Shown: positions 20,401 to 37,667 of the stretch, piece by piece
Numbering within the stretch: the first letter of the stretch is position 1
Layout: each line of letters opens with the position of its first letter
Source: an uncultured Desulfobacter sp.
Lineage (GTDB): Bacteria > Desulfobacterota > Desulfobacteria > Desulfobacterales > Desulfobacteraceae
Length of the DNA stretch: 64,000 nt
Assembly: GCA_963665095.1 (NCBI GenBank)
Contig: OY762069.1
Span: forward strand, 1,184,001-1,248,000
Direction: 5' to 3'
The notes under the pieces: model-generated
Seen by the model: the letters and a program-made list of their open reading frames with translations, nothing else
Database searches by the model: none
What the model was told of the DNA's origin: nothing
Made by a program: the position numbers and the translations under genes

Positions 20401-20408
20401 AAATAAAG

Positions 20409-20475: not shown

Positions 20476-20594
20476 ATGTTTTTAGAGAGAGTTAAAAAGC
20501 ACTTTTCTGTCAGTTCAGTCCTGAACCCGACACCCTGTATGAACAATATCTTTTCTGGTGCCAGGCAATCATACCCGGCATGCCCACCGGCTAT

Positions 20595-20700: not shown

Positions 20701-20794
20701 TTTTTTGGCCGTTGGCGGGATTTCCGGTAAGGTAGGTTTAAAATCAGCTTAAAATCAGAATTTTTAAATTTGTTTCAAGGCAGATTAATACCGT

Positions 20795-22060
20795 TTATTT
20801 TCCCATCCATGGCGGCAGCAGTATCTGGCCTGTTGCAATGCGTTTGGGATAAACCACCACCCGTTTGCCCGCCTGCCACTGGAGAATGGAGCCCACAGCC
20901 CCCTTTTCAGGATCATCAGCCGGGATTACCTGGTGGGACTGGGGATTAAATCTGAGCCGGCCATAGACGCCCATGAGGTCCATGGTCTCCAGGGCCTGAA
21001 TTACTTTGTCCGTATCAAGGGTCCCTGCCCTTTCAACGGCATCCTTGAGCGCATAAACCGCCATATAAGAGGAAGATGCGCCAAAACACTCGGGTGGCAC
21101 ACCCCATTTTTGTTCATAGGCATGGTAAAATTTCATGGTCCACGCAGTGGCGTTTGAAGGGGCATTACCGGCATTCACCACATTGCACAGGGTATACTCG
21201 CCCTTGCCGTCTGTGGTCTTCCAGAATCCAGGCTCTTCTGCAGCCGCCAGTGTGGAACCAAAAGGCAGGGCCGGAATCTTAAGATCATACCATTGACTGA
21301 GCAAAAGGGCACTTTCGGGCATGTCCATCCAGATGTTGATGATCTGGGCACCTGTCGATATGGCCTGGAGCAGGGCCGTGGAAAAATCCGTGGTGCCGGC
21401 AGGAAAAATCCGGGTGCCTGTCACCATAAACCCTTTGCTGCCCACTGCCTTTTCCATCACCTTGGCAGCCCCCCTGGCATGCGACACGTCCTGGGCAATA
21501 ATAAATACTTTTGACAGGCCGTATCTGGTTTTAAGATCGGCAAAAGCGGCCATGATCTCTCTTATGAGATTAACCGCCTCTCCGTGAATTCTGAAACAAT
21601 ACTTGAATCTGTCATAGTTGGATTTCACCTTTTTATGGTACTTGGGAGTAAGGACCCCGGAGGACACAATGGAAATTTTTTTGTATTTTGAAAAAATGTC
21701 CATGACTGACAGGGCTGCTTCAGACCGGTTTGGACCGCCCACGATGAAATCCGCATTTTTGTTAACAATGAGACTCTCCACAGCCATACGAACATTATGG
21801 AGCGGGACGCCCGGTTTTAGATCCCGGGTATCAACCACCTCTGCAGAAAAGAGGCGTTTTTCACCGCCCACAGACACCCCGCCAGCATCATTGATTTCAT
21901 CAACAGCCAGCTGAATGCCGCGCTGGGCACCCCGGCCGTAAAGATACGCTGTGGATAAAGGCACCCCTATCACAATGGGTTCAGCAGCCCTGAGAGTTTC
22001 AGTAAAAAAAACGGCCGGCAGAATAAAAAGAAAAACCGCGCACAGCCTGATACGGTTCAT
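20795..22060 (-). CDS. ABC transporter substrate-binding protein (LivJ/HAAT family), stand-alone
   Basis: Signal peptide, AVDEINDAGGV, TTDFSTAL, AVERAGTLDTDKVIQALE; RBS AAGGAG before ATG 22060. Confidence 0.88.
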   Translation of the reverse strand: MNRIRLCAVFLFILPAVFFTETLRAAEPIVIGVPLSTAYLYGRGAQRGIQLAVDEINDAGGVSVGGEKRLFSAEVVDTRDLKPGVPLHNVRMAVESLIVNKNADFIVGGPNRSEAALSVMDIFSKYKKISIVSSGVLTPKYHKKVKSNYDRFKYCFRIHGEAVNLIREIMAAFADLKTRYGLSKVFIIAQDVSHARGAAKVMEKAVGSKGFMVTGTRIFPAGTTDFSTALLQAISTGAQIINIWMDMPESALLLSQWYDLKIPALPFGSTLAAAEEPGFWKTTDGKGEYTLCNVVNAGNAPSNATAWTMKFYHAYEQKWGVPPECFGASSSYMAVYALKDAVERAGTLDTDKVIQALETMDLMGVYGRLRFNPQSHQVIPADDPEKGAVGSILQWQAGKRVVVYPKRIATGQILLPPWMGK

Positions 22061-22155
22061 GCTTATCTCCTTATAGTGAGGATGACGTGTTGAGGCGTGG
22101 TGACTTAAAATCAGAATATAAATGTAAATGGTTCTTTTACTTGTTAACAATTCCC

Positions 22156-23358
22156 CTACCCTTTAACAACACCTAAAGGATAAAATTTATGTAAAGGGGT
22201 AATCAGATCAAGTTGTGCGTCAACCACTTCATCGATGTTTTTATAGGCCTGGGGCGCTTCTCCAAGATCATACATCCCCTTGGTTTTGCCTCTTTTTACC
22301 TTGGACCACCGGTCATATACGATCCCCTGCATGGCCATGTCGCACGCGTCAGGGGTCAGACTGCGGGATGCCTGCATACGCCCCAGAACCCGTCCGGCCC
22401 CATGGGAGCAGGACATGAAAGACTCGGGATTTCCCAGCCCCTCTACAAGATAAGAGGGGGTTCCCATGGAGCCGGGAATGATGCCGATCTGGCCTTTTCC
22501 GGCCGAAGTGGCACCTTTTCTGTGGACCCAGGCATTGACCCCGAAATGGCTTTCAAGGGATGCGTAGTTGTGATGGATGTTTACCTCACCTGAGAACAGC
22601 ACATCCGGGAAAACCTCTGTTACCGCCTGTTTGAACCGGCTCATAATTCTTTTACGGTTTTCAGCCGCATAAGCCAGGGCAAAGTTCATATCCTTGATAT
22701 ACATCTGCCCTTCTGACGTGTCTGTGGGCAGAAATGCCAGATCCTTTCCTGGCGTGTCTGTCTGCCATTTTTCGTTTAAGCCCACCGCCATCTGATTATA
22801 GTAGCGGGCAATTATATTCCCAAGATGCCTTGATCCTGAATGGATCATCAGCCAGACATGGTCATCGTCTCCGGCCTGAATTTCAATGAAATGGTTTCCT
22901 CCGCCAAGAGTGCCTAAATTTTTGGGGGCAAGTGCCCTGACATGGGAGGAGAACCATCCGCGTTTTGCATAGGCATCAATATCGTCAAGTCCTTCCCAGG
23001 CCTGAGCCTGTTTATGCGCCATTCCCTCTCCGCAGGGTACAATTTTTTTAACCAGTTCAACAATCTTCCTGATTTTTCCTTGGCTTGCATTCGCCACTGG
23101 CACAGTAGTTCTCACCGATCCCATCCCGCACCCGATATCAACACCGACTGCATTGGGGATCACAGCATCCCTGGTCGCAATTACCCCTCCAATGGGCATG
23201 CCGTATCCTACATGGCAGTCCGGCATCAGGGCCACATGGTGAAACACCACCGGATGCACTGCCAGATCTTCAGCCTGTTTGAAAGCGTCATTTTCAAGAT
23301 TCCGGCACCAGGATTTAATCGGCACTTTATAGTGATCTTCTTTTTTTATCCATTCCAT
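22156..23358 (-). CDS. rtcB: RtcB family RNA ligase
   Basis: MPDCHVGYGMPIG, VGVDIGCG, GTLGGGNHFIE, HSGSR, HRKGAT, SCSHGAGR, EAPQAYK, C-terminal VVKG. Confidence 0.95.
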   Translation of the reverse strand: MEWIKKEDHYKVPIKSWCRNLENDAFKQAEDLAVHPVVFHHVALMPDCHVGYGMPIGGVIATRDAVIPNAVGVDIGCGMGSVRTTVPVANASQGKIRKIVELVKKIVPCGEGMAHKQAQAWEGLDDIDAYAKRGWFSSHVRALAPKNLGTLGGGNHFIEIQAGDDDHVWLMIHSGSRHLGNIIARYYNQMAVGLNEKWQTDTPGKDLAFLPTDTSEGQMYIKDMNFALAYAAENRKRIMSRFKQAVTEVFPDVLFSGEVNIHHNYASLESHFGVNAWVHRKGATSAGKGQIGIIPGSMGTPSYLVEGLGNPESFMSCSHGAGRVLGRMQASRSLTPDACDMAMQGIVYDRWSKVKRGKTKGMYDLGEAPQAYKNIDEVVDAQLDLITPLHKFYPLGVVKG

Positions 23359-23751
23359 CTCTTATCTCCTGTGCCTGGTCCCGAACCAACGCGTTGTGGA
23401 TGCTGAAATACAGCCCTTTTAATGCCCGGAGCAATGATTTAAGACCGTTAAATAAATATTTGTCAACATATGGAATTCAATGGCGCTATAGTCACTCTTT
23501 TTTTTGTAGGTTGGCTCACCTACAAGCCATGAATGAATCTGCCTAGAGAGTACCACAAAATCTACTTACATAAAAATTAAGACTTCAACCGATTGGTAGA
23601 ATATTGTCAGCCTGATAACTGTATAAACGATATTTTTCTATATTCGGACCGTTCCTGCAAGTTTTGCCTGTATGGGGAGGCGGGAACAAAAGGCAGGACA
23701 AAAGCGGCCTTAAAGAAAAAATGTGTAATCAATTAAATTCGGAGGGGACAA

Positions 23752-25509
23752 ATGACGTTGCAAAGCTTTTACAAAGAGGTGATGGCACTCAACAAGATCC
23801 AGGACATGGCTAAACGTGAGATAGAAGCGCAAACGTTTTTTAAAAAACTCAATTCAGCTGAACTGCCCAAAACTTTCAACTGGGCCCAGGAGATCTTTGA
23901 AGATATCCATGTCAAAGAACGTGGAGACCAGCTTGCACTGATCTGGGCGGATCTGCACACAGATGAGGAAGCGCAGTATACCTACACCGAGCTTGCTCAA
24001 AATGGAAACCGCATGCTCAATTTTCTGCGAAAAAAAGGGGTGGGAAAAGGCGACAACCTCTACATGCTGACCCCCATTGTCCCAGAAACCTGGTTTGCTT
24101 CCTTTGCCGGCCTCAAAGGAGGCCTTGTCACCGTTCCCACCGCCACCACCATGACGGAACGTGAAATTCAGTTCCGGTTTGAAGCGTATCCGCCGGATGT
24201 CATCATTGCCCATGAGAGCCTCACCACCCTGGTGGACGATGCCCTGGCCAAGGCCGGATGCACGCCTAAGGCCAAAGTGATCCTGGGCCAGAAAGAGGGC
24301 TGGACCTCCTATACTCAGATTGCAGAGGAATCACCGGAAGCGGCACCTGAGACCATTAACAGCGAAGACGTTCTGTTCTGCTTTTTCACATCCGGTACCA
24401 CAGGGCTTCCCAAACGGGTGGGTCACTCTGCGGTATCCTATCCCCTGGGCCATTTATCAACGTCAGTGGCCATCGGGCTTGAGCCCGGGAACATTCACCA
24501 CAATTTAAGTGCGCCTGGATGGGCCAAATGGGCGTGGAGCAGCTTTTTCGCACCCTTGAACGTGGGCGCCACAGCCACAGGTTTTAATTTCACCGCACTG
24601 GACATTAAAAAATACATCAGCCTGGTGGCAAAGTATAAAGTCAACTCCTTTTGTGCACCGCCCACTGCCTGGCGTGCCTTTGTGGGCCTTGATCTGTCAA
24701 AATATGATCTTTCCGCCATGAAGTACTCTTTAAGCGCCGGCGAACCCCTGAACCCGGAAGTCATTGATCAGTGGCGGGAGTCCACAGGCACGGAGATCCG
24801 CGATATCTACGGACAGACCGAATCCACCTGCATGATCGGCAATCCGCCCTGGATGGAAGGCAAAATGCGCCTGGGCTCATTCGGATACCCGTCATTCATG
24901 TACGACATTATCCTGGCGGACGATGAAGGCAAAGAGGTCACAGAACCTGATGTCACCGGCCACATCGTGGTCCGGCTCTCCAACTGGCGGGCCATCGGCC
25001 TGTTCCAGGAATACATTGACAATGATGAGAAAACCAAAGAGGCGTTTAAGCATGGCCTCTATTTCACCGGAGATAAAGCCACCTTTGATAAGGATGGCTA
25101 CTGGTGGTTTGTGGGCCGGGCAGACGATGTCATCAAAACCAGTGACTACCGGGTTGGTCCCTTTGAGGTGGAAAGTACGCTCATTGAACACCCGGCCGTC
25201 ATGGAAACAGCTGTGGTTGGCGTGCCTGATCCAAAGCGTCACCAGCTGGTCAAGGCCTTTGTCATTCTGGTTCCAGGCCAGAAACCTTCAAAAGAGCTGG
25301 CCCTGGAATTGTTCCAGCACACCATTGAGGTGCTGGCCAAGTTTAAAATCCCCAGAATCATTGAATTTGTGGAAGAACTACCCAAGACCATCTCCGGAAA
25401 GATCCGGCGTATAGAACTTCGGGAAAATGAGGAGAGTAAAACCGAATCACAGACCACCGAATATTTCTATCATCAGTTTCCGGAATTAAGCTCCAAGAAA
25501 GGCAAATAG
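23752..25509 (+). CDS. AMP-forming acyl-CoA synthetase (short/medium chain)
   Basis: FTSGTTGLPK, YGQTES, GRADDVIK, LPKTISGKIRR; RBS GGAGG. Confidence 0.93.
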   Translation: MTLQSFYKEVMALNKIQDMAKREIEAQTFFKKLNSAELPKTFNWAQEIFEDIHVKERGDQLALIWADLHTDEEAQYTYTELAQNGNRMLNFLRKKGVGKGDNLYMLTPIVPETWFASFAGLKGGLVTVPTATTMTEREIQFRFEAYPPDVIIAHESLTTLVDDALAKAGCTPKAKVILGQKEGWTSYTQIAEESPEAAPETINSEDVLFCFFTSGTTGLPKRVGHSAVSYPLGHLSTSVAIGLEPGNIHHNLSAPGWAKWAWSSFFAPLNVGATATGFNFTALDIKKYISLVAKYKVNSFCAPPTAWRAFVGLDLSKYDLSAMKYSLSAGEPLNPEVIDQWRESTGTEIRDIYGQTESTCMIGNPPWMEGKMRLGSFGYPSFMYDIILADDEGKEVTEPDVTGHIVVRLSNWRAIGLFQEYIDNDEKTKEAFKHGLYFTGDKATFDKDGYWWFVGRADDVIKTSDYRVGPFEVESTLIEHPAVMETAVVGVPDPKRHQLVKAFVILVPGQKPSKELALELFQHTIEVLAKFKIPRIIEFVEELPKTISGKIRRIELRENEESKTESQTTEYFYHQFPELSSKKGK

Positions 25510-25523
25510 CCATACGCAAACAG

Positions 25524-25567
25524 AACCCGCGGGCAGCAGGCTGCAACATGCCTGCTGCCCGCGGGTT
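25524..25567. terminator. 18-bp inverted repeat between convergent genes
   Basis: AACCCGCGGGCAGCAGGC-N8-GCCTGCTGCCCGCGGGTT. Confidence 0.7.
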
Positions 25568-26279
25568 ATTTAATGTAACTGTCAATAATCTGCTGATACC
25601 GGCCGCAGGCTTTCAATTCTGACAACCCCCGGTTAAATGCATCCCTGATATGCGGATCATTAAAGATCACCTTATACGGCGTGGGGGGAAAAATTTCGTG
25701 AAAGGCAGGCAGGCGCCGGGTACTCACACCGGCAACTTTTTTCCGGTAATATTTAAAAATATTAATATCTGATACCACCACGTCAGTTCTGCCCGCATAT
25801 AACATCTTGACCTGCACGACCTGCTGATCGTGCTCTATGTAGTCTGAAAGCGATTCCATGGTCTTTTTATATTCCGGCCCCAGATACTTTGTCGCATTCT
25901 GAAACGCCACCACCCGTTTGCCGGCCAGGTCATCCAGACAATCAATAACGATATTTTGATCCTTCAGGGTGATGGCGTAATTCTGATAGGTGATGACCAC
26001 ATCGGAAAAATACCCTTTCACACCAGTGGACTCATTGACGGTGACAGCCCCGTCATATTTCTTATAGTCAACAATAACCCGGGCAAAAGGGACATATTTA
26101 AGTTCAAGGGAATATCCTTTTGCGCTCAGCGCCTCTTTTACGATATCGTGCTCCATACCGTTCCCGGTTTCATAAATGATATAAGGCGGTAAGGACAACC
26201 CTGCGACAAGCGTAACTTGCGTTGCCTGTGAAACAGATACTGAAATAAGCACGATTAATATGATTAGAAGTGGTTTCAT
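25566..26279 (-). CDS. Periplasmic substrate-binding protein, family 3
   Basis: Signal peptide, LPPY, VVAFQNA, GRTDVVVSD, FNRGL. Confidence 0.85.
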   Translation of the reverse strand: MKPLLIILIVLISVSVSQATQVTLVAGLSLPPYIIYETGNGMEHDIVKEALSAKGYSLELKYVPFARVIVDYKKYDGAVTVNESTGVKGYFSDVVITYQNYAITLKDQNIVIDCLDDLAGKRVVAFQNATKYLGPEYKKTMESLSDYIEHDQQVVQVKMLYAGRTDVVVSDINIFKYYRKKVAGVSTRRLPAFHEIFPPTPYKVIFNDPHIRDAFNRGLSELKACGRYQQIIDSYIK

Positions 26280-26646
26280 ACGTATTCCCTGTTCATTTTG
26301 GATCCGGAAAGGAAGTGCCTTTTATCTTGATTCATCATAATGGCTAATGGTTAAAGTATCAATACCGGATGATGCTATCATCGAAGAATGTTATCGCAAC
26401 CTGTGACACTGTGAATGACAATTTCTAACACAACGCACCAATATTTCCCATTGATTCAAGCCGATTTTTGGGATAGAAGATGTGTAATCCTTAATGCGGG
26501 CACGAAGCCTGTGATTCAGACAAATTTTATCTGGTATCAATCCATGAAGGCTACAATGGCGATGTTTAACTGTAAGGTGGCAACACCTTTTGTTTGATTT
26601 TTAAGAGCCTCTATCATCTTTAAGGAATTGAAGGAGAAAATCAGTT

Positions 26647-27426
26647 ATGAAAAAATTAATTATTGCATCAGGCTTCCTGTTTCTGGGAGTGATTCTTTGC
26701 GCAGCAACTGTTCAGGCCCATTACGGTATGGTGATTCCTTCGGACAATATGGTTATGGAGAATGATGACCGCACTGTTCATATCACCGCCTCTTTTTCCC
26801 ATCCCTTTGAAGGGGTAGGCATGGAGCTTGTCACACCCAAAGTATTTGCTGTTAAAGCCAACGGCAAAGTTCAGGATCTCTTAGGCACCCTTGCACAGAT
26901 AAAAGTGATGGGGCACACTGCCTGGAAAACCGATTACAAATTTACAAGGCCCGGCGTTTACATGTTCTATATGGAACCCAAACCCTATTGGGAACCTGCC
27001 GAAGACTGCTTTATCATTCATTTCACCAAAACTGTTGTCACAGCGTTTGGCGATGACGAGGGCTGGGATGAAGAAATTGGACTTAAAACTGAAATCGTGC
27101 CGCTTTCCAAGCCCTTTGCCCAGTACGCCGGCAACGTGTTCCAGGGAATTGTGAAACTGGACGGCCAGCCAGTCCCCTTTGCCGAGGTAGAGGTGGAATA
27201 TTATAATGAAGACGGGAAATCTGAAGCACCTACAGATTATATGGTTACCCAGACCATCAAGGCCGATGCCAACGGCATATTTACCTATGCCGCTCCCAAA
27301 GCCGGATGGTGGGGATTTGCCGCGCTGAATGAAGCAGATTTTACCCTGAAAATCGACGGTCAGGATAAGGGTGTTGAGCTTGGCGCTGTCATCTGGGTGT
27401 TATTCGAAGACTGGAAAACCAAATAG
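26647..27426 (+). CDS. DUF4198 family periplasmic component of Ni/Co uptake (NikK-like)
   Basis: Signal peptide then [30 protein letters not shown]; heads the ECF operon. Confidence 0.85.
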
Positions 27427-27541
27427 TGTCTGAACGGCTTGATAGGTTGCTTTAACAAATTGCAATCCTCTCATACTGAAAGTATGCGCCGGTTGCAATT
27501 TGTCCTACGCCCTGCAGCTGGGTACCTTTTCGTCCAAACAC
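27426..27541. repeat. MITE-like folded intergenic element
   Basis: Terminal IR GTGTCTGAACG/CGTCCAAACAC (9/11); nested internal IRs ACAAATTGCAA/TTGCAATTTGT and CATACT/AGTATG. Confidence 0.55.
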
Positions 27542-27629
27542 ACCACCCTGGAAAGTAAAATTTTTATTGTGCGCTAAGGGTCTGATGGAAATTTTCCTGT
27601 CAGGCCCTATGGCGAACTAAGAAGGTGTT

Positions 27630-28274
27630 ATGCATATTTCCGAAGGCATTCTTTCTGCGCCGGTTTTGGGTACCGGAATGGCGCTGGCAGTGGCCGGGAC
27701 CGCCATTGGTCTAAAAACCCTTAAAGAGGACAAAATTCCCCAGGCAGCCATTCTGTCTGCGGCATTTTTTGTGGCCTCCCTGATCCATGTGCCCATCGGG
27801 CCTTCGTCCACGCATCTGATCCTTAACGGCATCCTTGGCCTGATGCTTGGCTGGGCCGCTTTCCCTTGCATACTCATTGCCCTGCTGCTGCAGGGTGTGC
27901 TGTTTCAATTCGGAGGCATCACCACCTTAGGTGTTAATACAGTCAATGTTGCCCTGCCTGCGGTACTGTGTTACTACGTGTTTGCACGGTTTATCCACAG
28001 ACAGGGGGCTGCGGCCTTTATTGCCGCCTTTACCTGTGGATTTTTAAGTGTATTTCTAACTGCCATCCTTGTGGGCGTATCCCTCATGTTTACCCAGGAA
28101 AGCTTTCTTGAAGTGTCTGTGGCGGTTGTTGTGGCCCATATTCCAGTGATGATCATTGAAGGATTTGTGACAGGATTCTGCGTCAGCTTTCTTAAAAAAG
28201 TTCAGCCGGAACTTCTGCCCCAGTGGCATGGTGTAAAAGGGCATACTGTCAAAGAGTCAGGGACCGTTTCCTGA
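27630..28274 (+). CDS. cbiM: ECF Ni/Co transporter S component CbiM/NikM
   Basis: N-terminal MHISEG, FFVASLIHVP, GGITTLGVN. Confidence 0.93.
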   Translation: MHISEGILSAPVLGTGMALAVAGTAIGLKTLKEDKIPQAAILSAAFFVASLIHVPIGPSSTHLILNGILGLMLGWAAFPCILIALLLQGVLFQFGGITTLGVNTVNVALPAVLCYYVFARFIHRQGAAAFIAAFTCGFLSVFLTAILVGVSLMFTQESFLEVSVAVVVAHIPVMIIEGFVTGFCVSFLKKVQPELLPQWHGVKGHTVKESGTVS

Positions 28275-28316
28275 TATTTTATCTCCTTATCTCTTAATTT
28301 TAAATGGTTACCTATA

Positions 28317-28955
28317 ATGAGACGAAAATTATATTTATTGGTATTTTCATGCTGTATGATGCTTTGTCTTCTTTTCACCGGCACGGCCCTGGCTCACAAA
28401 GTCACAGTATTTGCCTGGGTGGAAGGCAATGTGATTTACGGGGAAAGCAAGTTCAGCGGTGGTAAAAAGGCCCGGAATGCGGACGTCATTGTCTGGGATG
28501 AAAGCGGCAGGGAGCTGATGCGGACCAAGACTGACGACAATGGGGAATTTTCATTTCCCGTACCCCAGAAAACCGCCATGCGTATTGAACTTCTTGCGGG
28601 CATGGGACACAAGGCGGACTGGACTATTCCCCTGGAAGATGTCAAGGACGTGGATATTGCAGAATCTGTGGCAAATGAGCCCCCCCCTTCGGCCTCAACA
28701 GATACGGCTGACCAGGAAAAAACACAGGCGGCAGTGCCCCGGGCATCTGTTCCTGCCGGCATAAACCAGGCCCAGCTTGAGGCTATTGTGGAGAAGGCCG
28801 TATCAAGCGCTTTAAGCAAAAAAATTTCCCCGCTGACAAAAATGGTGGCGGATCTGAAGCAGGATGGGCCCACCGTGAATGACATCATGGGCGGCATCGG
28901 CTACATTTTCGGACTGATGGGTGTGGCCATGTACTTTAAATCAAAAAAAAGATAA
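28317..28955 (+). CDS. NikL/CbiL-like accessory component
   Basis: Signal peptide + AHKVTVFAW, TDDNGEFSF, GMGH, C-terminal TM GGIGYIFGLMG. Confidence 0.8.
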   Translation: MRRKLYLLVFSCCMMLCLLFTGTALAHKVTVFAWVEGNVIYGESKFSGGKKARNADVIVWDESGRELMRTKTDDNGEFSFPVPQKTAMRIELLAGMGHKADWTIPLEDVKDVDIAESVANEPPPSASTDTADQEKTQAAVPRASVPAGINQAQLEAIVEKAVSSALSKKISPLTKMVADLKQDGPTVNDIMGGIGYIFGLMGVAMYFKSKKR

Positions 28956-28971
28956 AAACGGCCAGGGTATC

Positions 28972-29730
28972 ATGATTGAAGAGCCCTTTGCTGCAGGCAG
29001 TTCCTTTATCCACAGGCTTGATCCCCGGTGCCGGGTGATGGTGGCGACCCTTTTGTGCTTTGTGGTTGCCTTGAGCCAAAAGCTGCCCACGCTCTGGGCG
29101 GGCCTTGGACTGGCAATTCTTCTGGTGGTCCTGGCCTGGCTCAATCCCGGGCAGGTGATCCGGCGGATACTGGTTATCTGGACTTTTCTTTTGTTTTTAT
29201 GGGCCATTCTGCCCTTTACCTATAAGGGCGACGTGGTCTTTCAAATCGGCGGGTTCGGCATGACCCGGCAGGGTATTGATCTCTGCATTGCCATCAGCCT
29301 GAAGTCAAATACCATTCTCCTTGTTTTTATTGCGCTTGTCACCACCATGGATTTCAGCACCCTGGGATATGTGCTTAATTTTTTCCACATGCCGGAAAAG
29401 CTGGTCCATCTGCTGCTGTTAACCTACCGGTATATCTTTGTGATTGATCAGGAGTACCGGCGGCTGATCCGGGCAGCCCGGCTCAGAAGCTTTGAGCCGA
29501 AAACCAACCTGCACACCTACCAGACCTATGCCTATCTTTGCGGGATGCTCTTTGTTCGGGCCTCGGCAAGGGCCCAGCGCGTTTACAACGCCATGAAATG
29601 CCGGGGCTTTTCAGGCCGGTTTCACTGCCTGCGGGAATTCAGTCTGGACCGGACAGACATTGTCTGGACAGTCATCGCTCTTACAGCGGTAACAGGCCTG
29701 GTCATTATGGAGGTAACACCCATTCTATGA
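28972..29730 (+). CDS. cbiQ: ECF transmembrane component CbiQ/NikQ
   Basis: HRLDPR, TYRYIFV, RAQRVYNAMKCRGF. Confidence 0.92.
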   Translation: MIEEPFAAGSSFIHRLDPRCRVMVATLLCFVVALSQKLPTLWAGLGLAILLVVLAWLNPGQVIRRILVIWTFLLFLWAILPFTYKGDVVFQIGGFGMTRQGIDLCIAISLKSNTILLVFIALVTTMDFSTLGYVLNFFHMPEKLVHLLLLTYRYIFVIDQEYRRLIRAARLRSFEPKTNLHTYQTYAYLCGMLFVRASARAQRVYNAMKCRGFSGRFHCLREFSLDRTDIVWTVIALTAVTGLVIMEVTPIL

Positions 29731-30443
29731 TACAAAACACGTCAATACTGCACCTGGAAAACGTAAGCTTCAGCTACCCTGGACGCGGCCGGGTACTCAA
29801 TAATGTCTGCCTGACCGTCAATAGGGGGGACCGCATCGGCCTGGTCGGCCCCAACGGCAGCGGGAAAACCACATTGTTTCACATCATCATGGGTCTTTTA
29901 AAGCCCACCTCCGGCACCATTGAATTTTTCGGCGCCCCGGTTAAGACAGATAAGGATTTCAGGCAGGTTTACAAAAAAGTAGGATTGCTGTTCCAGGATT
30001 CCGATGACCAGCTTTTCAGCCCAACAGTGATAGAAGATGTGGCCTTTGGCCCGCTGAATCTGGGGAAATCAAAATCTGATGCAGGGAATATTGCAAGAAT
30101 GACCCTGGACCGGCTGGGCATTGGGGATTTTGCCCAGCGGATCACCCACAAGCTCTCGGGTGGGGAGAAGCGACTGGTGGCCCTGGCAGCCGTACTTTCC
30201 ATGAAACCGGAGCTGGTGCTGCTGGACGAACCCAGCACCGGTCTGGATGAAAAAACAAAAGAAATTCTGGTGGATGTGTTGAACCGTCTGGAACTATCCT
30301 ATATCCTGATCTCACATGAAAGTGATTTCATGTCCCGGATTGTGAACACCATATATACGATGGAGGATGGTACCCCCCAGAAGGACACTCATATCCATCA
30401 ATACAAACATACGCACCCAAACCCGATGCAACATCATGAGTAG
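29727..30443 (+). CDS. cbiO: ECF ATPase CbiO/NikO with His-rich tail
   Basis: GPNGSGKT, FQDSDDQLF, LSGGEKR; C-terminus THIHQYKHTHPNPMQHHE. Confidence 0.9.
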   Translation: MIQNTSILHLENVSFSYPGRGRVLNNVCLTVNRGDRIGLVGPNGSGKTTLFHIIMGLLKPTSGTIEFFGAPVKTDKDFRQVYKKVGLLFQDSDDQLFSPTVIEDVAFGPLNLGKSKSDAGNIARMTLDRLGIGDFAQRITHKLSGGEKRLVALAAVLSMKPELVLLDEPSTGLDEKTKEILVDVLNRLELSYILISHESDFMSRIVNTIYTMEDGTPQKDTHIHQYKHTHPNPMQHHE

Positions 30444-30446
30444 CCT

Positions 30447-31373
30447 ATGCATGACATAAATTTTTTTCACGAACATGAGCTCAAAGAGCATGACTTTTTA
30501 GGCTGCTGCAAGGACTGCCAGAGGAGCCTGGCCATTATTAAGCCATTAATTCTGGGCTTTGCCGATAATATCGGACACTACTCCTATGAGCAGCTTTCAG
30601 AACTTCCGCCCGAAGAGCTGTATCGGCTCTATCAACTCCTGGATGATCTCGCCCACATGGATGCAGGGCCGCATCTTGCCGGCATGCTGCTGGAGGAAAA
30701 AGAGATCCGAGAAGTACTGCTCCTGATCCGCTCATACTACACGGCTTTTTTCAGCATTCACGAACGGCACCTGGCAAAGGAGCTCTTGGCAAGCCCGGAT
30801 CCCTGGAAGCAGATTGAAACCTTTCCTTTGTATCCCCGGTACGAAGCCCTGGTGAAAAACCAGATTCAGGCCATGCATATATCCAGTGAAAAACGACTGG
30901 CGTTTTTAGGTTCCGGTCCCGTACCCCTGACCCTGATTCTTCTGAACCGCTTTTTTAATATTCCGTCGGTGGGTATTGACAGTGATGGAGAAACTGTAGC
31001 GATTTCCAGGAAAATCATTGGCCATCTGGGCCTTGAAAATGACATCGACATTGTCCAGGGAGATGATGCCACTCTCGGGGATCTGGCCTGGGATGTGGTC
31101 CTGGTGGCGGCTCTTGCCGAACCAAAGGCACGGATTTTCTCCCAGCTGCGCAACATCCTGGCCATACGGGGCCCGGCCCCGGTGGTGTTCCGCACCTATA
31201 CAGGTATGAGAGCAGTACTGTACAAGCCAGTTCAGCCTGAAGATATCAAAGGGTTTAAAATTGTCCAGGCGATTCAGCCCACAGGCCGGGTTAATAACAC
31301 CACGGTTTTCATGCAGCTCCAGGAAAACAAACCCCATAAATTCTTAAGCAAACCTGAATTCGATGACTCCTGA
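30447..31373 (+). CDS. Nicotianamine synthase-like protein 1
   Basis: FPLYPRYEALVKNQ, AFLGSGPVPLT, VLVAALAEPK, FRTYTGMRAVLY, VNNT. Confidence 0.82.
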   Translation: MHDINFFHEHELKEHDFLGCCKDCQRSLAIIKPLILGFADNIGHYSYEQLSELPPEELYRLYQLLDDLAHMDAGPHLAGMLLEEKEIREVLLLIRSYYTAFFSIHERHLAKELLASPDPWKQIETFPLYPRYEALVKNQIQAMHISSEKRLAFLGSGPVPLTLILLNRFFNIPSVGIDSDGETVAISRKIIGHLGLENDIDIVQGDDATLGDLAWDVVLVAALAEPKARIFSQLRNILAIRGPAPVVFRTYTGMRAVLYKPVQPEDIKGFKIVQAIQPTGRVNNTTVFMQLQENKPHKFLSKPEFDDS

Positions 31374-32184
31374 CCAGATCAAAAAAGAATTTCTTGAAAT
31401 CTATGACACCCTGGCCCCCATAACGGTCCAGGATGTTCTTGAGGGCAGGCACCAGGAGGCATACCCCTGTTTTGACCGGCTTGACCAGATGGCGGTCATA
31501 AATATGGACGACCATACAGCCGAACGTCTGCGCACCAATGCCGAACTCTTTCCGGTACTTGAGCATATCTCCCGGCTGAAACGGACCAACGGCCTTCGCC
31601 TGGAGATCCGCAATGCAAAAATCGTTATTAATTCAGCCACCCCCTGGGAAACCGTCAAACAGTTTGTGTACTACCCCAACTATCTGGAACTTGCCCGCAT
31701 GGAGTACACCGGCGGCCATCTTTCTCCCGGAGACAGGGTAGTTTTTTTAGGCTCCGGCCCCATGCCGCTGACCCTGATCTGCCTTTGCACCCGGTATAAC
31801 ATTATAGGCATCGGTATTGAACAGTTCAAAGAGTACGCCCAGTTATCACGCCAGCTGATCCAGGCCCTGGATCTGAGCAACAAAATCCAGATCATTCAAG
31901 GCAACCACTTCTGCCTTCCCCTGTCCGATCCCTGTAAGCTTATTATGATCGGCGCAGACGCCCTGCCCAAAGATGAAATATTTGCCCATCTGTCAGCCAG
32001 CCTTGAAGGCGGCACAGCGCTTTCCTACCGGATTTATGAAAAGGGGTTACGAAGGCTTCTGGATGTCCAGTCCGGTTTCACGCTTCCCCAAGGAATCAAA
32101 GAGGTGCGCCGCATCCGGCCGGAACCGCCAGTGAACAACACATCTGTGTTTGCGATAAAAGAGCGTTTCCCCAACAATTTATGA
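31363..32184 (+). CDS. Nicotianamine synthase-like protein 2
   Basis: FVYYPNYLELARMEY, VFLGSGPMPLT, YRIYEKGLRRLL, VNNT. Confidence 0.85.
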   Translation: MTPDQIKKEFLEIYDTLAPITVQDVLEGRHQEAYPCFDRLDQMAVINMDDHTAERLRTNAELFPVLEHISRLKRTNGLRLEIRNAKIVINSATPWETVKQFVYYPNYLELARMEYTGGHLSPGDRVVFLGSGPMPLTLICLCTRYNIIGIGIEQFKEYAQLSRQLIQALDLSNKIQIIQGNHFCLPLSDPCKLIMIGADALPKDEIFAHLSASLEGGTALSYRIYEKGLRRLLDVQSGFTLPQGIKEVRRIRPEPPVNNTSVFAIKERFPNNL

Positions 32185-32323
32185 GCGGTTTGAAAAACTT
32201 ATTCGGGCAACTATCTCATACCCTTTGCCTGATCTATGATTCTTGAACAGAGACAGGCCATGGATACGGGTAAAGCAGGCGTGTTTGGGTGGAATGGAAA
32301 TCAGAATACGGTCGTGATATTGC

Positions 32324-32374
32324 AAACAACCTTCCTTTCATAGCGTTGATCAGCTAATGAAAGGAAGGTTGTTT
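32324..32374. terminator. Bidirectional terminator between the ECF/NAS and qrc operons
   Basis: 18-bp arms AAACAACCTTCCTTTCAT / ATGAAAGGAAGGTTGTTT. Confidence 0.7.
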
Positions 32375-32484
32375 ATATTTAACTCACGGAACTGTCAAAC
32401 TTATTGATGACTCGACCCCCACCCCGACCTGAGGCATGGTACCCAGTAAAATTTAAAAAGACAGAACCTTAATCATCCTAAACT

Positions 32485-32643
32485 CTAATGGTGCGACTCA
32501 CCATCGTCATTTACGGTGTCATATGCCGCCTTGAGAATGCAGTAGGTCATTCCCGCACCCAGAATAGAGATGGCATACCAGAACCCGCCGAAAAAAATGG
32601 CATGGCCGATGTCCCAGGCCCATTCAAAACAAAAGGGAAACAT
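32485..32643 (-). CDS. 52-aa small membrane protein downstream of qrcD (below ORF-track cutoff)
   Basis: MFPFCFEWAWDIGHAIFFGGFWYAISILGAGMTYCILKAAYDTVNDDGESHH*; AGGAGG RBS, 12 bp after the qrcD stop, one TM. Confidence 0.8.
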   Translation of the reverse strand: MFPFCFEWAWDIGHAIFFGGFWYAISILGAGMTYCILKAAYDTVNDDGESHH

Positions 32644-32655
32644 AAGAAACCTCCT

Positions 32656-33915
32656 TTATCCGTTTTGAGCTGCCGTATCGGCAGGTTTGTTAAGTTCCAG
32701 CTCCTGGGGGAATACCGGCAGGTACCGGTATGCCACGGCGATCAGGATAATGCCGTAGGCCACAGGCAGAACCGTTGTGGCAATTTCCTGCCAGCTTGGG
32801 AAATACAATGCCCAGGTGTCAAAGGACATGACAGGTACAGCCATGATCTGGAGCACCATAACCCAGCGGTTCAGACATACACCGATAACACCCAGGGTAA
32901 TGGCAATCAGGCGTGTGGTTGGGTTTTCCCGGGTGCTTTTCATGATCAGCAGAAGCCCTGGGACCACACCGCACAGGATCACTTCGGTAATGAGAATCCA
33001 GTATCCGTAGAACCCGTTATTGCTGTAAAAGTGACTCAGCTTGAACCCCATGGAAGGTGCGGTTACATAGGCCCAGTAAATGGTGTCTATGATTTTGGCC
33101 ACAATGTAGGTAGTGATCATCCATCCGGATATTTTGGCCAGCAGGTGAACCGTTTTGTCTCCCACCAACTTTTTACCCGTAACTGCTTCAGTAATCCTGG
33201 TTACCAGCAGGGTAAAGCATGGACCAAAAGCCGCTGCAGACCAGGTAAACAAAAAGAACGTCCACGGCCAGATCAAAAGGCCCTCACGATAGGCAAAGGG
33301 TCTGCCGAACATAACGCCGGCCACACCACCCAGAGATCCCTGGTGGAAAAAGCTTAAAAAAGCACCTGTTGCGGCAAAGACAGCCATCACTTCGTGCATG
33401 TTGTGGGCCAGGTGATGAAAGAACGGCACCTTGTAAGCCTGGCGGTTTTCCAGGATATTGGGAATGAACTCAATGGTCAGCACTGCAAAGTAGCAGGATA
33501 GACAGAAGGCCACCTCGGTGAGCATGGAATGCACATTGGCATGCCAGAAGATGAACCACCCGCGCAAAGGCTGTCCAATATCAATGGCCAGAATCAGAAG
33601 GGCTGAGCTGTAGCAGATAAACCCAATGATAACGGCAAAGTTAATGATATTTTTCAGCTCATCAACCTTGAAAATATACTTTAAAAGGCCAGTAAAAAAT
33701 GCGCCGCCGCCTACGGCAATAACTGCCAGGTCAGCCCAGATCCACAGGGCAAACCCGTAATAATCGTTCATATTGGTCTGGTTCAGGCCTTTGAACCAGC
33801 AAAGGAACATGGCGATAACGCCCCAGAGAAGAACGACACCGACTATGCTGATCCCAATCATGAATTTCGGGAATGCACACCGTTTGGCGCCTTCGGGTAT
33901 TAATGCATCATCCAT
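32656..33915 (-). CDS. qrcD: Menaquinone reductase membrane subunit QrcD (NrfD family)
   Basis: WIWADLAVIAVGGGAFF, DIGQPLRGWF, HQGSLGG, PSWQE; operon context. Confidence 0.92.
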   Translation of the reverse strand: MDDALIPEGAKRCAFPKFMIGISIVGVVLLWGVIAMFLCWFKGLNQTNMNDYYGFALWIWADLAVIAVGGGAFFTGLLKYIFKVDELKNIINFAVIIGFICYSSALLILAIDIGQPLRGWFIFWHANVHSMLTEVAFCLSCYFAVLTIEFIPNILENRQAYKVPFFHHLAHNMHEVMAVFAATGAFLSFFHQGSLGGVAGVMFGRPFAYREGLLIWPWTFFLFTWSAAAFGPCFTLLVTRITEAVTGKKLVGDKTVHLLAKISGWMITTYIVAKIIDTIYWAYVTAPSMGFKLSHFYSNNGFYGYWILITEVILCGVVPGLLLIMKSTRENPTTRLIAITLGVIGVCLNRWVMVLQIMAVPVMSFDTWALYFPSWQEIATTVLPVAYGIILIAVAYRYLPVFPQELELNKPADTAAQNG

Positions 33916-33946
33916 ATCTAATTACTCCTAAATAGTTTTATGCAAG

Positions 33947-34804
33947 TTAACCATGGGATGAAGACGCCCCATGATGGGTTTTAACATTTTCCCACTCACC
34001 TTTAAGATAGTTGTCACCGGCTTTCCTAACCCATTCCCGGTCAGACATGTAATACACCTTGGTGTTGGTGCCAAGACGTTCAAGCAGCCTGAATACTTTG
34101 GGGTTTCTGGATTTGCCGACAACTTTGTGGTTCATGGGGTCCGGATGGGGATCTGGTTTGACAATCTGGTGCACCTTGTGGGCCGGATTATTCAAATCCC
34201 CGAATACAATGGCACCGGCCGGGCATGCGGTGGTGCACGCGGTCTGGTATTCCATCTCTTCTATTTCGCGTTCTTCAGCAATGGCTGCTTCACGGGCCAG
34301 CTGATATCTGTGGTAACAGAAGGAGCATTTCTCTACCACCCCGCGCATACGCGGAGAGACATTGGGACTGAGGTAATTTTCCATCCCTTCCGGCCATTTG
34401 GGATCCCACCAGTTGAAATACCGGGCATGATAAGGGCATGCCCCCATGCAGTACCGGCAGCCAAAGCAGCGGGTATAAATCTGGCTGACAATACCAGTGT
34501 CATAGCCATAGTCAGTTGCTGTTGCAGGACATACAGAGACGCATGGGGAGTGGCCATGGTCACCAATTCCGCCGCAGTGCTGGCAGGGTCTTGGCAGATA
34601 GACCACTTCGGTTTCAGGAAAAGATTTTCCGTTGGTCAGTTTGTACACCCGCATCCAGGTGATGCTGTCCTTTTTGTTGGATTCATCCTCCTTAAACGGA
34701 ACGTTATTTTCTGACATGCACGAGACCATGCAGGCACCACATCCCGTGCATTTGTCCAGATCAATGACCATTCCGAACTTATGGGCTTTTTTATTTTCTA
34801 TCAT
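33947..34804 (-). CDS. qrcC: Menaquinone reductase Fe-S subunit QrcC
   Basis: CTGCGAC, CQHC, CFGCRYC, EKCSFC. Confidence 0.92.
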   Translation of the reverse strand: MIENKKAHKFGMVIDLDKCTGCGACMVSCMSENNVPFKEDESNKKDSITWMRVYKLTNGKSFPETEVVYLPRPCQHCGGIGDHGHSPCVSVCPATATDYGYDTGIVSQIYTRCFGCRYCMGACPYHARYFNWWDPKWPEGMENYLSPNVSPRMRGVVEKCSFCYHRYQLAREAAIAEEREIEEMEYQTACTTACPAGAIVFGDLNNPAHKVHQIVKPDPHPDPMNHKVVGKSRNPKVFRLLERLGTNTKVYYMSDREWVRKAGDNYLKGEWENVKTHHGASSSHG

Positions 34805-34836
34805 CAGAACCTCTTAAAAAGATTTGGTAAACAGTT

Positions 34837-36951
34837 TTATGCCTTGGAAAGTGTTGCCTTGATTCCAAAGGCAGCATCCAGTCCTGAACCAGGCTCGATG
34901 ACCGGGCCGATCAGATCATTGACATTAACGCCCTTGCCCGCCACATAGGGATTGTTGCACTTGTGGCCAAGGCCTCTTGCCATGCCGATCACTCCCGGCT
35001 GAATACCTTCATTGAGGCCAATTTTCACCTTAGCCGTTCCCACTGCAGTTTTCAAAACAGCAAAGTCGCCATCCTTCAGAGACCCTGCAGAAGCGGGATT
35101 GATTTCCACAACAATGCTCTTGCCGGTGAGTACCCGGTCTGACACCGTTTTAATGGCAAAGGGAGAGGAGGCAGTGTCAGCCCCGGCCAGACGCATATTA
35201 TCCACAGGCACCAGGGTAAAATCCCCCTCACCCATGGGCTGGATGGCAGCAGGTCCGGAAGAGAGGAAGTTGAAATCCGTGGCAGGCATCCCCACCGGCG
35301 GTTTATCCTCAATGACAATATAGCCCTCTTCGGAAAGGGTGTCCCAGTTATCCTGGGCAGCTTCTTCCAGGCAGGCATCATAGGATTCCCACTCAAAACC
35401 GGCTGCAATACTGTCTCCCATGGCCTGGGCCAGAAGAATCAGGGCATCACCCGGATGTTTGGTATCAAACGCCGGTTTAACCATAGGACGGCATAAGCCC
35501 ACAACTGTTTTGGGAAGCCCTGCGCCGGAAGGCACATCTTCAAGACGTTCAAGGAAAATGGAAGCAGGCAGGATCACGTCGGACTGCAGGGCGGTTTCAT
35601 CCATGAATGAGGAAAAACTGACCTTGAAATCAATCTTTTCCATGGCTGCCTTGACCTTATCAGGCGCATGCAGGGTGTAGCAGGGATTGGCATTGTAAAT
35701 GAACAATGCAGAGAGCCCCTTTTCCTTTTCAAGCTTTTCAACCAGTTCACTGATGGAACCGGCAAGTTTTTCTTTAGCCGCCCCTGTTTCCGCGATCTCA
35801 TCCTGTTCAAGCTCGGGAAAGGAGAGATAGTCTGTGACAGGCATAACAAATGCACCGCCTTCCTTGTTCAACCGACCAGCCAAGGCGTTCAGGGTCTGAA
35901 CAGCAGCAAATTCGCGCAGGCTTTGTCCATAATCGCCCTTTCCTTTTCCGGGAACCGCCACTGGTGCTTTGGCCTTAACAAACTCCATGGCAAGCGCTTC
36001 TATATCAGCGGCCTTGACACCGGTAACCGCTTCCACCTTTTCCGGTGTGTAATTCTTGGTTACCATGGCATGAAATTTATTGATGCCGCCGGTAAGCCTT
36101 CCAGGAGCAATCTGGTTCTTTGAAAGCAGTACCGCGCACAGCCCTAAGGCCAGATCGGCTTCGGTTCCGGGTTTTACAACGATCCATTTATCTGCACTGT
36201 TCGCTGTATTGGAAAGCCGGTAATCGATCTGAACCAGTTTTGCGCCGCGCTCTTTTCGTGCGGCATGGGCCTGAATGCAGGCCACCGGAGACCCCCAGCC
36301 TTCAATGAGACCGGCACCGAAACTTAAAATAAAATCAGAATGGTCAAGATCAAAACCAAGTGTCCGGTCAGCACTGTGAAGAGAGGCTGCTGTCAGGGCC
36401 AGATTGGTTTCAAGGCTTGGCATGGCATAGGTGTTTGGCGAACCAAAAGCATCCATGAATCGTGAAAACAATTTTGCCACGGAACCACAGGTGGTACCGG
36501 TGATCAGGCCAAGACCTTCAGGTGTTCCGTTTTCACGTAAAGCCCCAAGCTTTCCTGTAACAAGGGCAATGGCCTCATCCCAGGAAATCGCCTCAAATCT
36601 GTTTCCGTTCTTTTTCATGGGTGATTTGACTCTGGCAGGGTCATAGAGATACTGCAGGCCGGAAATACCATGCAGACATGCACCGCCGTTGTTAATGGGA
36701 TATTCGTCAAGCCCTTCTATTTTTACGGGCCGTCCGTTAACTTTTCTGACGTTAATACCGCAGGCGCCTGGACACAGGCTGCATACGGAACGTTCATAGG
36801 TTATTTCACCGTCTTCAGGGACAGGGGTCCAGGGCCAGTTCTGGGTCCAGATGGAAGAGTCATCTGTCAGCTTGATGCCCACAGGAGAGAGCGCTACGCC
36901 AGCTGCCGCGCCAAGTCCCAATCCCAAGAAGCTTCGTCTGTCAATTTTCAT
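34837..36951 (-). CDS. qrcB: Menaquinone reductase molybdopterin-family-like subunit QrcB
   Basis: Tat motif DRRSFL, DDSSIWTQNW, CSLCPGAC. Confidence 0.92.
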   Translation of the reverse strand: MKIDRRSFLGLGLGAAAGVALSPVGIKLTDDSSIWTQNWPWTPVPEDGEITYERSVCSLCPGACGINVRKVNGRPVKIEGLDEYPINNGGACLHGISGLQYLYDPARVKSPMKKNGNRFEAISWDEAIALVTGKLGALRENGTPEGLGLITGTTCGSVAKLFSRFMDAFGSPNTYAMPSLETNLALTAASLHSADRTLGFDLDHSDFILSFGAGLIEGWGSPVACIQAHAARKERGAKLVQIDYRLSNTANSADKWIVVKPGTEADLALGLCAVLLSKNQIAPGRLTGGINKFHAMVTKNYTPEKVEAVTGVKAADIEALAMEFVKAKAPVAVPGKGKGDYGQSLREFAAVQTLNALAGRLNKEGGAFVMPVTDYLSFPELEQDEIAETGAAKEKLAGSISELVEKLEKEKGLSALFIYNANPCYTLHAPDKVKAAMEKIDFKVSFSSFMDETALQSDVILPASIFLERLEDVPSGAGLPKTVVGLCRPMVKPAFDTKHPGDALILLAQAMGDSIAAGFEWESYDACLEEAAQDNWDTLSEEGYIVIEDKPPVGMPATDFNFLSSGPAAIQPMGEGDFTLVPVDNMRLAGADTASSPFAIKTVSDRVLTGKSIVVEINPASAGSLKDGDFAVLKTAVGTAKVKIGLNEGIQPGVIGMARGLGHKCNNPYVAGKGVNVNDLIGPVIEPGSGLDAAFGIKATLSKA

Positions 36952-36995
36952 AAGTCATCCTTTATAAACTTTGAAATTTTTGTCCTTGAGGTATT

Positions 36996-37667
36996 TTACT
37001 TGTGGCACTGGAAGCAGTAACCCTTGTGACCCATTTTTTCCTGATGACATTCTGCGCAGTCATCCATCTTCATCCGATCCCAGGAGTTCTTTTTAATTCC
37101 CCAGATGCTTTTCCCCCAGATGTCCCGGCTGTAACCGGTGATTCTGTTTTCCTCATAGGGGCGTGAAGATGTGGATTCACCAATATGACCGTGGCAGGTT
37201 ACGCACGCCATGCCGCCACCCACTGTGTGGGCCGCATGGGAGAAAAATACGCAGTCCGGCTGTTTGGCATACACCAGCCATGGGACTTCCTTGCCCTGGG
37301 CCACATATTCCTCAATGAAAACCGCTTCATCATCAGTCTCACCCATGGGCTCGTCCGTATGGCACTCCATACAGGCAGCCAGGCCGGGAATGCCTGAAAA
37401 TGTGCCGTCATCTCTGAGGTAATGGCAGGTTTCACAATCACCTGTTTCTTCTGCATGAAGCTTGTGATCGAAGTTAAACGGCTGCTCTTTTTTTGAATAA
37501 AGCAATTTGGGAAACAGCAGCCAGCCCGACAGGAAGCATATCAGAAATGCCCCCATAAAAAAGATGACGCCAAGCCCTAAACCAGCGTCATCCTTTGGAC
37601 CGTTGTCGGTGCCATGGTGCGCACCACTCTCAGGACCATCATTTGCTTTGTTTTCTAGTTCGCTCAT
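36996..37667 (-). CDS. qrcA: Menaquinone reductase multiheme cytochrome c QrcA
   Basis: One TM and five CxxCH motifs (CETCH, CMECH, CVTCH, CAECH, CFQCH); QPDCVFFSHAAH. Confidence 0.92.
   Translation of the reverse strand: MSELENKANDGPESGAHHGTDNGPKDDAGLGLGVIFFMGAFLICFLSGWLLFPKLLYSKKEQPFNFDHKLHAEETGDCETCHYLRDDGTFSGIPGLAACMECHTDEPMGETDDEAVFIEEYVAQGKEVPWLVYAKQPDCVFFSHAAHTVGGGMACVTCHGHIGESTSSRPYEENRITGYSRDIWGKSIWGIKKNSWDRMKMDDCAECHQEKMGHKGYCFQCHK

Follow-up and report, generated by a model that had tools for sequence, protein, structure and literature searches.

Two adjacent nicotianamine synthase-family genes in a nickel/cobalt transport operon of an uncultured Desulfobacter: a candidate metallophore pathway

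Sulfate reducers and methanogens rely on enzymes that use nickel or cobalt, and sulfide leaves these metals very poorly soluble. A locus in a 64,000 bp stretch of the genome of an uncultured Desulfobacter sp. (GenBank accession number GCA_963665095.1, contig OY762069.1; coordinates 1,184,001 to 1,248,000), referred to here as the window, raises the question of why an operon for a Ni/Co importer of the energy-coupling factor (ECF) type should end in two genes related to nicotianamine synthase (NAS). The original prediction, made from this sequence alone, was that the two genes belong to a new metallophore pathway. A nicotianamine-type Ni/Co metallophore produced by two sequential aminobutyrate transferases was found to be the best reading of the locus, with a probability of roughly 50%. 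The NAS-family assignment and the link to an ECF importer support the prediction, but the set of genes it assigned to the pathway was too narrow.

The seven genes nikK-nikM-nikL-nikQ-nikO-NAS1-NAS2 are located at window positions 26647-32184, all on the + strand. This order had been predicted, and it was read directly from the sequence together with the 3 bp gap between nikO and NAS1 and the 11 bp overlap (ATGACTCCTGA) between NAS1 and NAS2, with every product matching its expected family.

NAS1 (30447-31373, + strand; 308 aa) and NAS2 (31363-32184, + strand; 273 aa) matched the Pfam NAS family, PF03059, with 100.9 and 92.6 bits respectively, well above the Pfam gathering cut-off of 27.1 bits. 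The predicted NAS signatures are present in both (FLGSGPVPLT / FLGSGPMPLT, and VNNT), and the two proteins are 33% identical (E 5e-33), in keeping with their description as divergent paralogues. In a sequence search of solved structures, the thermonicotianamine synthase of Methanothermobacter thermautotrophicus (MtNAS; PDB 3FPE, 3FPG, 3O31) was matched by NAS1 with an E value of 4.7e-44 and by NAS2 with 5.2e-29 (chain 3fpe), whereas the matches to CntL, the NAS-family transferase of the staphylopine-type systems, were far weaker (3e-6 and 0.2). As scores against the CntL model NF033601 were 34.8 and 24.9 against a cut-off of 350, both proteins belong to the NAS family in its archaeal form and are not CntL orthologues.

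The glutamate replaced in 3fpg (an E81Q chain, compared with 3fpe) aligns with E106 of NAS1 and E81 of NAS2. This glutamate, a tyrosine 26 residues further on and the FxGxGPxP loop were invariant in alignments of 10, 31 and 31 sequences, and among the 31 NAS2 orthologues the invariant positions are E81, Y107 and the loop. The conserved tyrosine of NAS proteins is presumably catalytic. The possibility that one paralogue is a dead copy was rejected, as both retain the catalytic residues. An AlphaFold model of NAS1 (pLDDT 86.3) superimposed on 3fpe with TM-scores of 0.79/0.91 and a root-mean-square deviation of 2.1 A, on CntL (7c9m) with 0.65/0.75, and on ordinary methyltransferases with no more than 0.45 (TMq). 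The structural comparison proposed with the original prediction thus came out as expected for NAS1 (0.91 to MtNAS and 0.75 to CntL), but NAS2 was compared by sequence only, and no member of its clade closely matched a solved structure in the searches made here. Hence, in family, fold, catalytic glutamate and S-adenosylmethionine (SAM) loop the pair resembles MtNAS, and it is likely that NAS1 and NAS2 are each a SAM-dependent aminobutyrate transferase.

NAS1 differs from MtNAS in carrying an N-terminal extension of approximately 26 residues that is rich in histidine and cysteine (residues 1-24, MHDINFFHEHELKEHDFLGCCKDC; 30447-30520, + strand; H2, H8, H10, H15, C20, C21 and C24). The consensus, MHDIN[FY]xHxHELxxHDFxGCCKDC, is nearly invariant in bacterial NAS1 orthologues, only the GCCxDC part is kept in the archaeal ones, and members of the MtNAS group do not have the extension. 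Residues 1-20 were modelled with low confidence. This N-terminus is probably a metal site.

The distribution of the pair was examined in 61 related genomes, of which nine were NAS-positive (PF03059) and 52 NAS-negative. Two NAS genes were found side by side in eight of the nine. A wider scan, using one genome per species, yielded 65 loci, most of them from Desulfobacterales (Desulfobacter, Desulfospira, Desulfobacterium, Desulfonema, Desulfosarcina, Desulfobacula and NaphS2, as given in the record titles) and seven from Methanotrichaceae, Methanocrinis and Methanosarcinales records. NAS1 was located directly 5' of NAS2 in 49 of 50 testable bacterial loci and in both testable archaeal loci, and in many loci the junction is a 4 bp overlap or a gap of 2-12 bp. 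Two adjacent NAS genes were also present in all four archaeal genomes G061-G064, while in a sample of 251 genomes from the same archaeal phylum 25 had NAS matches, which included single genes as well as adjacent sets. In the Methanosarcinales-type loci L069-L072, two genes of the NAS2 clade stand back to back.

A tree of 64 sequences (quick IQ-TREE run, rooted at the midpoint with no outgroup) separated into two deep clades, each with an SH-aLRT value of 100. Clade A, the MtNAS clade, includes bacterial NAS1, NAS1-like genes of Methanotrichaceae and the MtNAS orthologue group, and clade B includes bacterial NAS2 and many archaeal genes. Within clade A, the MtNAS orthologue group branches as a subclade of its own (SH-aLRT 99), and one of its members (L113) aligned with 3fpe over residues 1-265 to 1-263 with 289 bits. 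Membership of NAS1 and NAS2 in that group was considered and rejected, as NAS1 falls in the sister group and has the N-terminal extension, and NAS2 belongs to clade B. Bacterial NAS1 and bacterial NAS2 are each monophyletic, and their subtrees have sister pairs in common (L054 with L079, L056 with L064, and the window with L020/L021), indicating that the two genes were inherited together. From gene order and phylogeny, NAS1-NAS2 is an ancient co-inherited two-gene unit common to Desulfobacterales and some methanogens. The pair had been put forward as a feature of an operon in a sulfate reducer; it is present there, but is special neither to this operon nor to sulfate reducers.

Two metagenomic proteins of 588 and 595 aa were found to be natural NAS1-linker-NAS2 fusions in which the order of the genes is kept. 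Their identity to the NAS proteins of the window is 42% and 46%; they have the His/Cys motif at the N-terminus and retain the glutamate and tyrosine in both halves. The fusions suggest that two active enzymes work jointly, probably in sequence. A prediction of a NAS1-NAS2 complex, made with alignments, scored 0.01 against a mark of 0.32, which speaks neither for nor against binding.

The original prediction had called for the conservation of the neighbourhood to be checked, and the link between the NAS pair and Ni/Co ECF genes was found to recur in bacteria, both among the relatives and in the wider scan, and in Methanosarcinales. The arrangement nikKMLQO-NAS1-NAS2 is present in relatives G003, G009 and G021 and nikKML-NAS1-NAS2 in G035; G011 carries the NAS pair without nik genes. 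At least two of NikK, NikM, NikL and NikQ are encoded within 7 kb of the pair in 10 of the 20 bacterial loci with at least 6 kb of flanking sequence on both sides. In the Methanosarcinales loci (L069-L072; e.g. L070:330-6491) the pair lies beside genes for NikL-like, CbiM, CbiQ and ATPase components and for a DUF4198 protein that bears a PGF-CTERM anchor, and loci of this type resemble an archaeal counterpart of the bacterial nik-NAS operon. Genes for NicO-family permeases are located near the pair in L046 and L075. In the genome under study, NAS1 and NAS2 are the only PF03059 genes and nikM is the only CbiM/NikM-family gene, and the single pair stands adjacent to the single CbiM-family gene. 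Because both are single in the genome and the linkage recurs in other genomes, it exceeds what would be expected by chance.

The five components known from NikKMLQO and CbiMNQO ECF importers are all present here, with the NAS genes as an added feature of the operon. The nikK gene (26647-27426, + strand) encodes the periplasmic DUF4198 component of a Ni/Co ECF system (PF10670, 213 bits) with a signal-peptide-like N-terminus, for which no solved relative was found by sequence. The nikM gene (27630-28274, + strand) encodes an S component of the CbiM family (PF01891, 207 bits; NF004905, 284.9 against a cut-off of 173) with the N-terminus MHISEG, and nikL (28317-28955, + strand) encodes a NikL-family Ni/Co ECF subunit (NF058648, 190.6 bits against a cut-off of 100). 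The T component, CbiQ, is encoded by nikQ (28972-29730, + strand; PF02361, 120.6 bits; TIGR02454, 136 against a cut-off of 111.8); a listed GTG start at 28921 was set aside, as orthologues align from the ATG at 28972. The start of nikO (29727-30443, + strand; PF00005, 113 bits), which encodes the ECF ATPase, was likewise set by orthologues and overlaps the nikQ stop by 4 bp. The CbiM, NikL, CbiQ and DUF4198 components score above their cut-offs, while the best NCBIfam matches of the ATPase are ECF/cobalt ATPase models, yet under their cut-offs. The metal appears in the names of the family models only, as cobalt for CbiM and nickel/cobalt for NikL; importers of this kind with K and L subunits are taken here to carry nickel. 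A terminator had been predicted after NAS2, and a stem-loop was found at 32324-32374 (+ strand; dG -32.2 kcal/mol, z -7.0, none of 200 shuffles as good), 140 nt past the NAS2 stop. Its U-tract is weak and a simple terminator scan did not list it, but it probably ends the operon.

The prediction had further stated that no racemase accompanies the pair. However, of 40 testable bacterial loci, 30 have a gene for a pyridoxal phosphate (PLP) enzyme with an alanine-racemase N-terminal fold after NAS2. The encoded enzyme has Ala_racemase_N and D-ser_dehydrat domains, and its closest solved relatives are D-threonine aldolases (6.7e-33), D-3-hydroxyaspartate aldolase and D-threo-3-hydroxyaspartate dehydratase. 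In the genome studied here the orthologue is located approximately 595 kb from the NAS genes (G000:C1:618804-619958, - strand) and shares 67% identity with the G011 copy, which stands after NAS2.

This second locus continues past the PLP gene, in the same orientation, with genes for a UbiE-type methyltransferase, a TonB-dependent receptor, an SBP_bac_5 protein, two ATP-binding cassette (ABC) ATPases and two permeases. The PLP and methyltransferase genes are 336 bp apart and the genes are tightly packed from the methyltransferase on. The closest solved relatives of the SBP_bac_5 protein are nickel-binding proteins (3t66, 1.9e-53; Escherichia coli NikA, ~1e-37). The locus holds a TonB-dependent receptor together with a NikABCDE-type importer, contrary to the implication that there is no ABC or TonB importer, though these stand beside the PLP and methyltransferase genes and not beside the NAS genes. 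The eight genes recur in G003 with their order kept and with 68-86% identity. The PLP orthologue was found in five of the nine NAS-positive relatives, and among the 52 NAS-negative ones only as one broken fragment; the receptor orthologue was found in five of nine and in three of 52. Near the NAS pair itself, a UbiE-type methyltransferase recurs (51-62% identity among five loci), and genes for TonB-dependent receptors abut the pair in L039 and L053.

On the reading preferred here, NAS1 and NAS2 would act one after the other, transferring 3-amino-3-carboxypropyl (aminobutyrate) groups from SAM to an amino-acid acceptor, and the product would be a thermonicotianamine-like aminopolycarboxylate serving Ni/Co acquisition. 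The PLP enzyme may supply or alter the acceptor, and since its relatives are aldolases and dehydratases, a beta-hydroxy-D-amino acid is an attractive idea. The UbiE-type methyltransferase would tailor the product, and the chelator would be released and bind Ni or Co in sulfidic water, with the metal-chelator complex re-entering the cell via the TonB-dependent receptor and the NikA-type importer while NikKMLQO would bring in the ion. The His/Cys-rich NAS1 extension would be a metal-binding site, with which synthesis could be tuned.

Several observations weigh against this reading. Ni/Co ECF genes were not near the pair in the other 10 of the 20 well-flanked bacterial loci, and no exporter was found beside the pair in any annotated locus. 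The PLP orthologue was not found in G009 or G021, which both carry nikKMLQO-NAS1-NAS2 and the second of which is listed as 100% complete, and the PLP gene accompanies the pair in none of the seven archaeal loci. The connection of the two loci rests on neighbourhood in other genomes, no regulatory site common to both was found, and the C-terminal domain of NikR (NikR_C) was not matched anywhere in the genome. Moreover, ECF and NicO transporters import ions rather than chelates, which suits an intracellular ligand equally.

As the main alternative, the same enzymes could make a cytoplasmic thermonicotianamine-like ligand that buffers or hands on the Ni/Co delivered by NikKMLQO, much as plant nicotianamine does, with the second locus a separate system for nickel uptake. 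The import of free ions, the lack of an exporter and the operons of G009 and G021 would all suit such a ligand, as would the archaeal NAS pairs that stand beside ECF genes without tailoring or uptake genes, and a His/Cys N-terminus would be appropriate for sensing metal in the cytoplasm. However, the PLP and methyltransferase genes travel with the TonB-dependent receptor and NikA-type importer in both this genome and G003, the PLP enzyme directly follows NAS2 in most other genomes, and receptor genes abut the pair in two loci. The finding of receptor orthologues in three NAS-negative relatives is also a pattern common for shared secreted chelators, and an intracellular role is considered unlikely, though it deserves to be taken seriously.

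The strict adjacency and overlap of NAS1 and NAS2 and the existence of natural fusions would also be consistent with an obligate heteromer made of a single catalytic subunit and a partner that serves as scaffold or regulator. This is very unlikely, as the glutamate, tyrosine and SAM loop are invariant in both clades and both fusion halves, single genes from each clade occur in archaea, including the active MtNAS group, and NAS2 is found without NAS1 in L046 and L018. A further possibility is that the pair makes no chelator and transfers aminobutyrate or methyl elsewhere, for instance to a polyamine-like compound or the precursor of a cofactor, the transporter context then reflecting shared regulation. 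Half of the well-flanked loci are without Ni/Co genes and the neighbours in some loci include genes for methionine and homocysteine metabolism, as such a role might predict. Nevertheless, Ni/Co transport is the commonest functional theme around the pair, and methionine and methylthioadenosine (MTA) genes fit heavy use of SAM. The characterized enzymes among the matches, MtNAS and CntL, all make a building block of a metal chelator, and the portion of PMC10248798 available indicates the same for plant and fungal NAS. A role unconnected with chelation is very unlikely.

The preferred reading, two sequential transferases making a metallophore, can also be set against the systems already known. 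MtNAS is a single enzyme, which reportedly adds two aminobutyrate units to glutamate, whereas here two paralogues from two deep clades travel together and one of them, NAS2, is of the other clade. Transporter or tailoring genes accompanying MtNAS were not described in the literature searched.

The Cnt systems for staphylopine, pseudopaline and yersinopine likewise tie a NAS-family transferase to a NikA/Opp-type ABC importer, and the pseudopaline system includes a TonB-dependent receptor, as does the second locus here. The metals of these systems include Ni and Co, according to the accessible parts of bioRxiv 10.1101/641969 and PMC7438024. They consist of CntL and CntM with or without CntK, the importers CntABCDF or CntO and the exporters CntE or CntI. 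By comparison, the Desulfobacter genome has two NAS enzymes rather than one, neither passing the CntL equivalog model, and a PLP enzyme of the D-threonine aldolase family with a methyltransferase in place of an opine dehydrogenase and a DapF-type racemase. The operon also includes an ECF Ni/Co importer, the system is spread over two loci and no exporter was seen beside the pair. No match to CntM (PF10100) was found in this genome, though the model also matched in none of 14 control genomes.

Plant and fungal NAS belong to the same Pfam family and share the SAM-derived aminobutyrate chemistry predicted here, and their product is an intracellular and long-distance metal ligand according to the part of PMC10248798 available. 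However, in plants a single enzyme, not encoded in an operon, joins three SAM-derived units, and the NAS proteins of Desulfobacterales represent the archaeal form. The same source, in that part, assigns bacterial and archaeal NAS-like proteins to short classes IV and V and gives no gene context for them. No description of the pair, of its PLP and methyltransferase partners or of its linkage to Ni/Co ECF genes was found in the full-text literature searched, and a term search of the accessible text of PMC7438024 and bioRxiv 10.1101/641969 found no mention of Desulfo-, delta(proteobacteria) or archaea.

The leader of nikK (26451-26646) was examined for signs of regulation. It includes promoter-like hexamers (TTGATT, 26451-26456, and TAGAAG, 26474-26479, 17 nt apart; + strand), an invariant inverted repeat or hairpin (GCGGGC-ACGAA-GCCTG, 26496-26511, + strand), a CCAYGAAGG box and a terminator-like hairpin followed by a T-run (26574-26589, + strand). 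The leader is conserved in an alignment of eight nikK upstream regions, the general form of the repeat is GCRGGC-AHGAA-GCCTG, and the hairpin pattern was found 5' of nikK in 11 loci of Desulfobacter and Desulfospira type. The genome studied here has one exact site, and two further sites with one mismatch lie inside coding sequence. RNAalifold supported the first hairpin only, with no compensatory changes. A structured-RNA reading was rejected, as there are no compensatory pairs and the leader in the window folds like shuffled sequences (z -0.65). Nothing credible from Rfam was matched in window positions 20000-40000 or in the second locus, and the nikK leader is therefore not a riboswitch known in Rfam. 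It could be an operator or attenuator.

Searched with an nhmmer profile of the nikK leaders, this genome yielded the nikK site alone (E 4.6e-27, or 6e-13 without the row from the window). A regulatory site shared by the two loci was rejected, as this profile missed the leader of the second locus and k-mer sharing was trivial except for the CCACGAAGG box. Upstream of the PLP gene, comparison of this genome with G003 showed no clear conserved site. An element of the form CCAYGAAGGY ... GTGGY followed by a T-run, which is a terminator with the conserved box as its 5' arm, is present in four copies in the genome (G000:C1 near 618559(-), 1946494(-), 2808164(+) and 4448416(-); loci L086, L124, L122 and L123), each 5' of a TonB-dependent receptor operon including that of the second locus. 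This element may represent shared leader control of receptor genes; the box in the nikK leader is akin to it, but was not linked to it statistically. In L123 the element is again followed by genes for a receptor, an SBP_bac_5 protein and a methyltransferase.

Further features were noted around the pair in other genomes. Genes for an orphan ECF-type ATPase, 58-64% identical to NikO, were found just 5' of NAS1 in three loci (L029:644-1408, L034:6496-7260 and L038:689-1564), with no S or T component nearby and, in L029, an IS66 transposase gene between the ATPase gene and NAS1. These look like remnants of a nik operon. Some relatives show signs of decay: in G024 (L018, 11362-12227) nikKMLQO is followed by NAS2 only, with a shortened N-terminus, and NAS1 lies in two frames in L010 and L019, a frameshift splitting the gene in one metagenome-assembled genome. 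In L061 (10962-14348), NAS1-NAS2 is followed by genes for an alanine dehydrogenase, an MTA phosphorylase-like protein and an amidohydrolase resembling MTA/S-adenosylhomocysteine deaminases. The predicted functions at this one locus suggest local salvage of MTA as a by-product, which would fit an MTA-releasing reaction.

Just 3' of the operon, at window positions 32656-37667 (- strand), is a set of genes for a molybdopterin oxidoreductase (NrfD-like membrane, 4Fe-4S and catalytic subunits and a multihaem cytochrome c), and a similar set lies 5' of the NAS pair in L054, L060 and L052. Three genes for EamA-family transporters are located 12-23 kb 5' (3635-4549, + strand; 9908-10810, + strand; 13826-14698, - strand), with nothing that ties them to the NAS genes; EamA is, we assume, the family of the pseudopaline exporter CntI. 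The window also includes a gene (55190-62836, - strand) for a 2548 aa protein with RadC-like JAB, LPD3 and 2'-5' RNA-ligase-like domains. It is of the large polyvalent type that mobile elements carry.

The conserved NAS pair tied to Ni/Co importers is a concrete and testable candidate for Ni/Co acquisition in the presence of sulfide. It is possible, though this is put forward tentatively, that strict anaerobes living in sulfide, the Desulfobacterales and the Methanotrichaceae and Methanosarcinales, share an ancient two-enzyme pathway for a dedicated Ni/Co chelator to which genes for tailoring and uptake are added in bacteria. If the reading is correct, a NAS-based nickelophore would exist outside pathogens and plants, nicotianamine-like metallophores would extend beyond the CntL/CntM type, and the pathway would involve new chemistry combining two aminobutyrate transferases with a PLP enzyme of the aldolase/dehydratase family and a methyltransferase. 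The archaeal thermonicotianamine-type enzymes, for which the literature searched describes structure and chemistry but not physiology, would gain a biological role, and there would be an answer to how Ni and Co are supplied where sulfide precipitates both metals.

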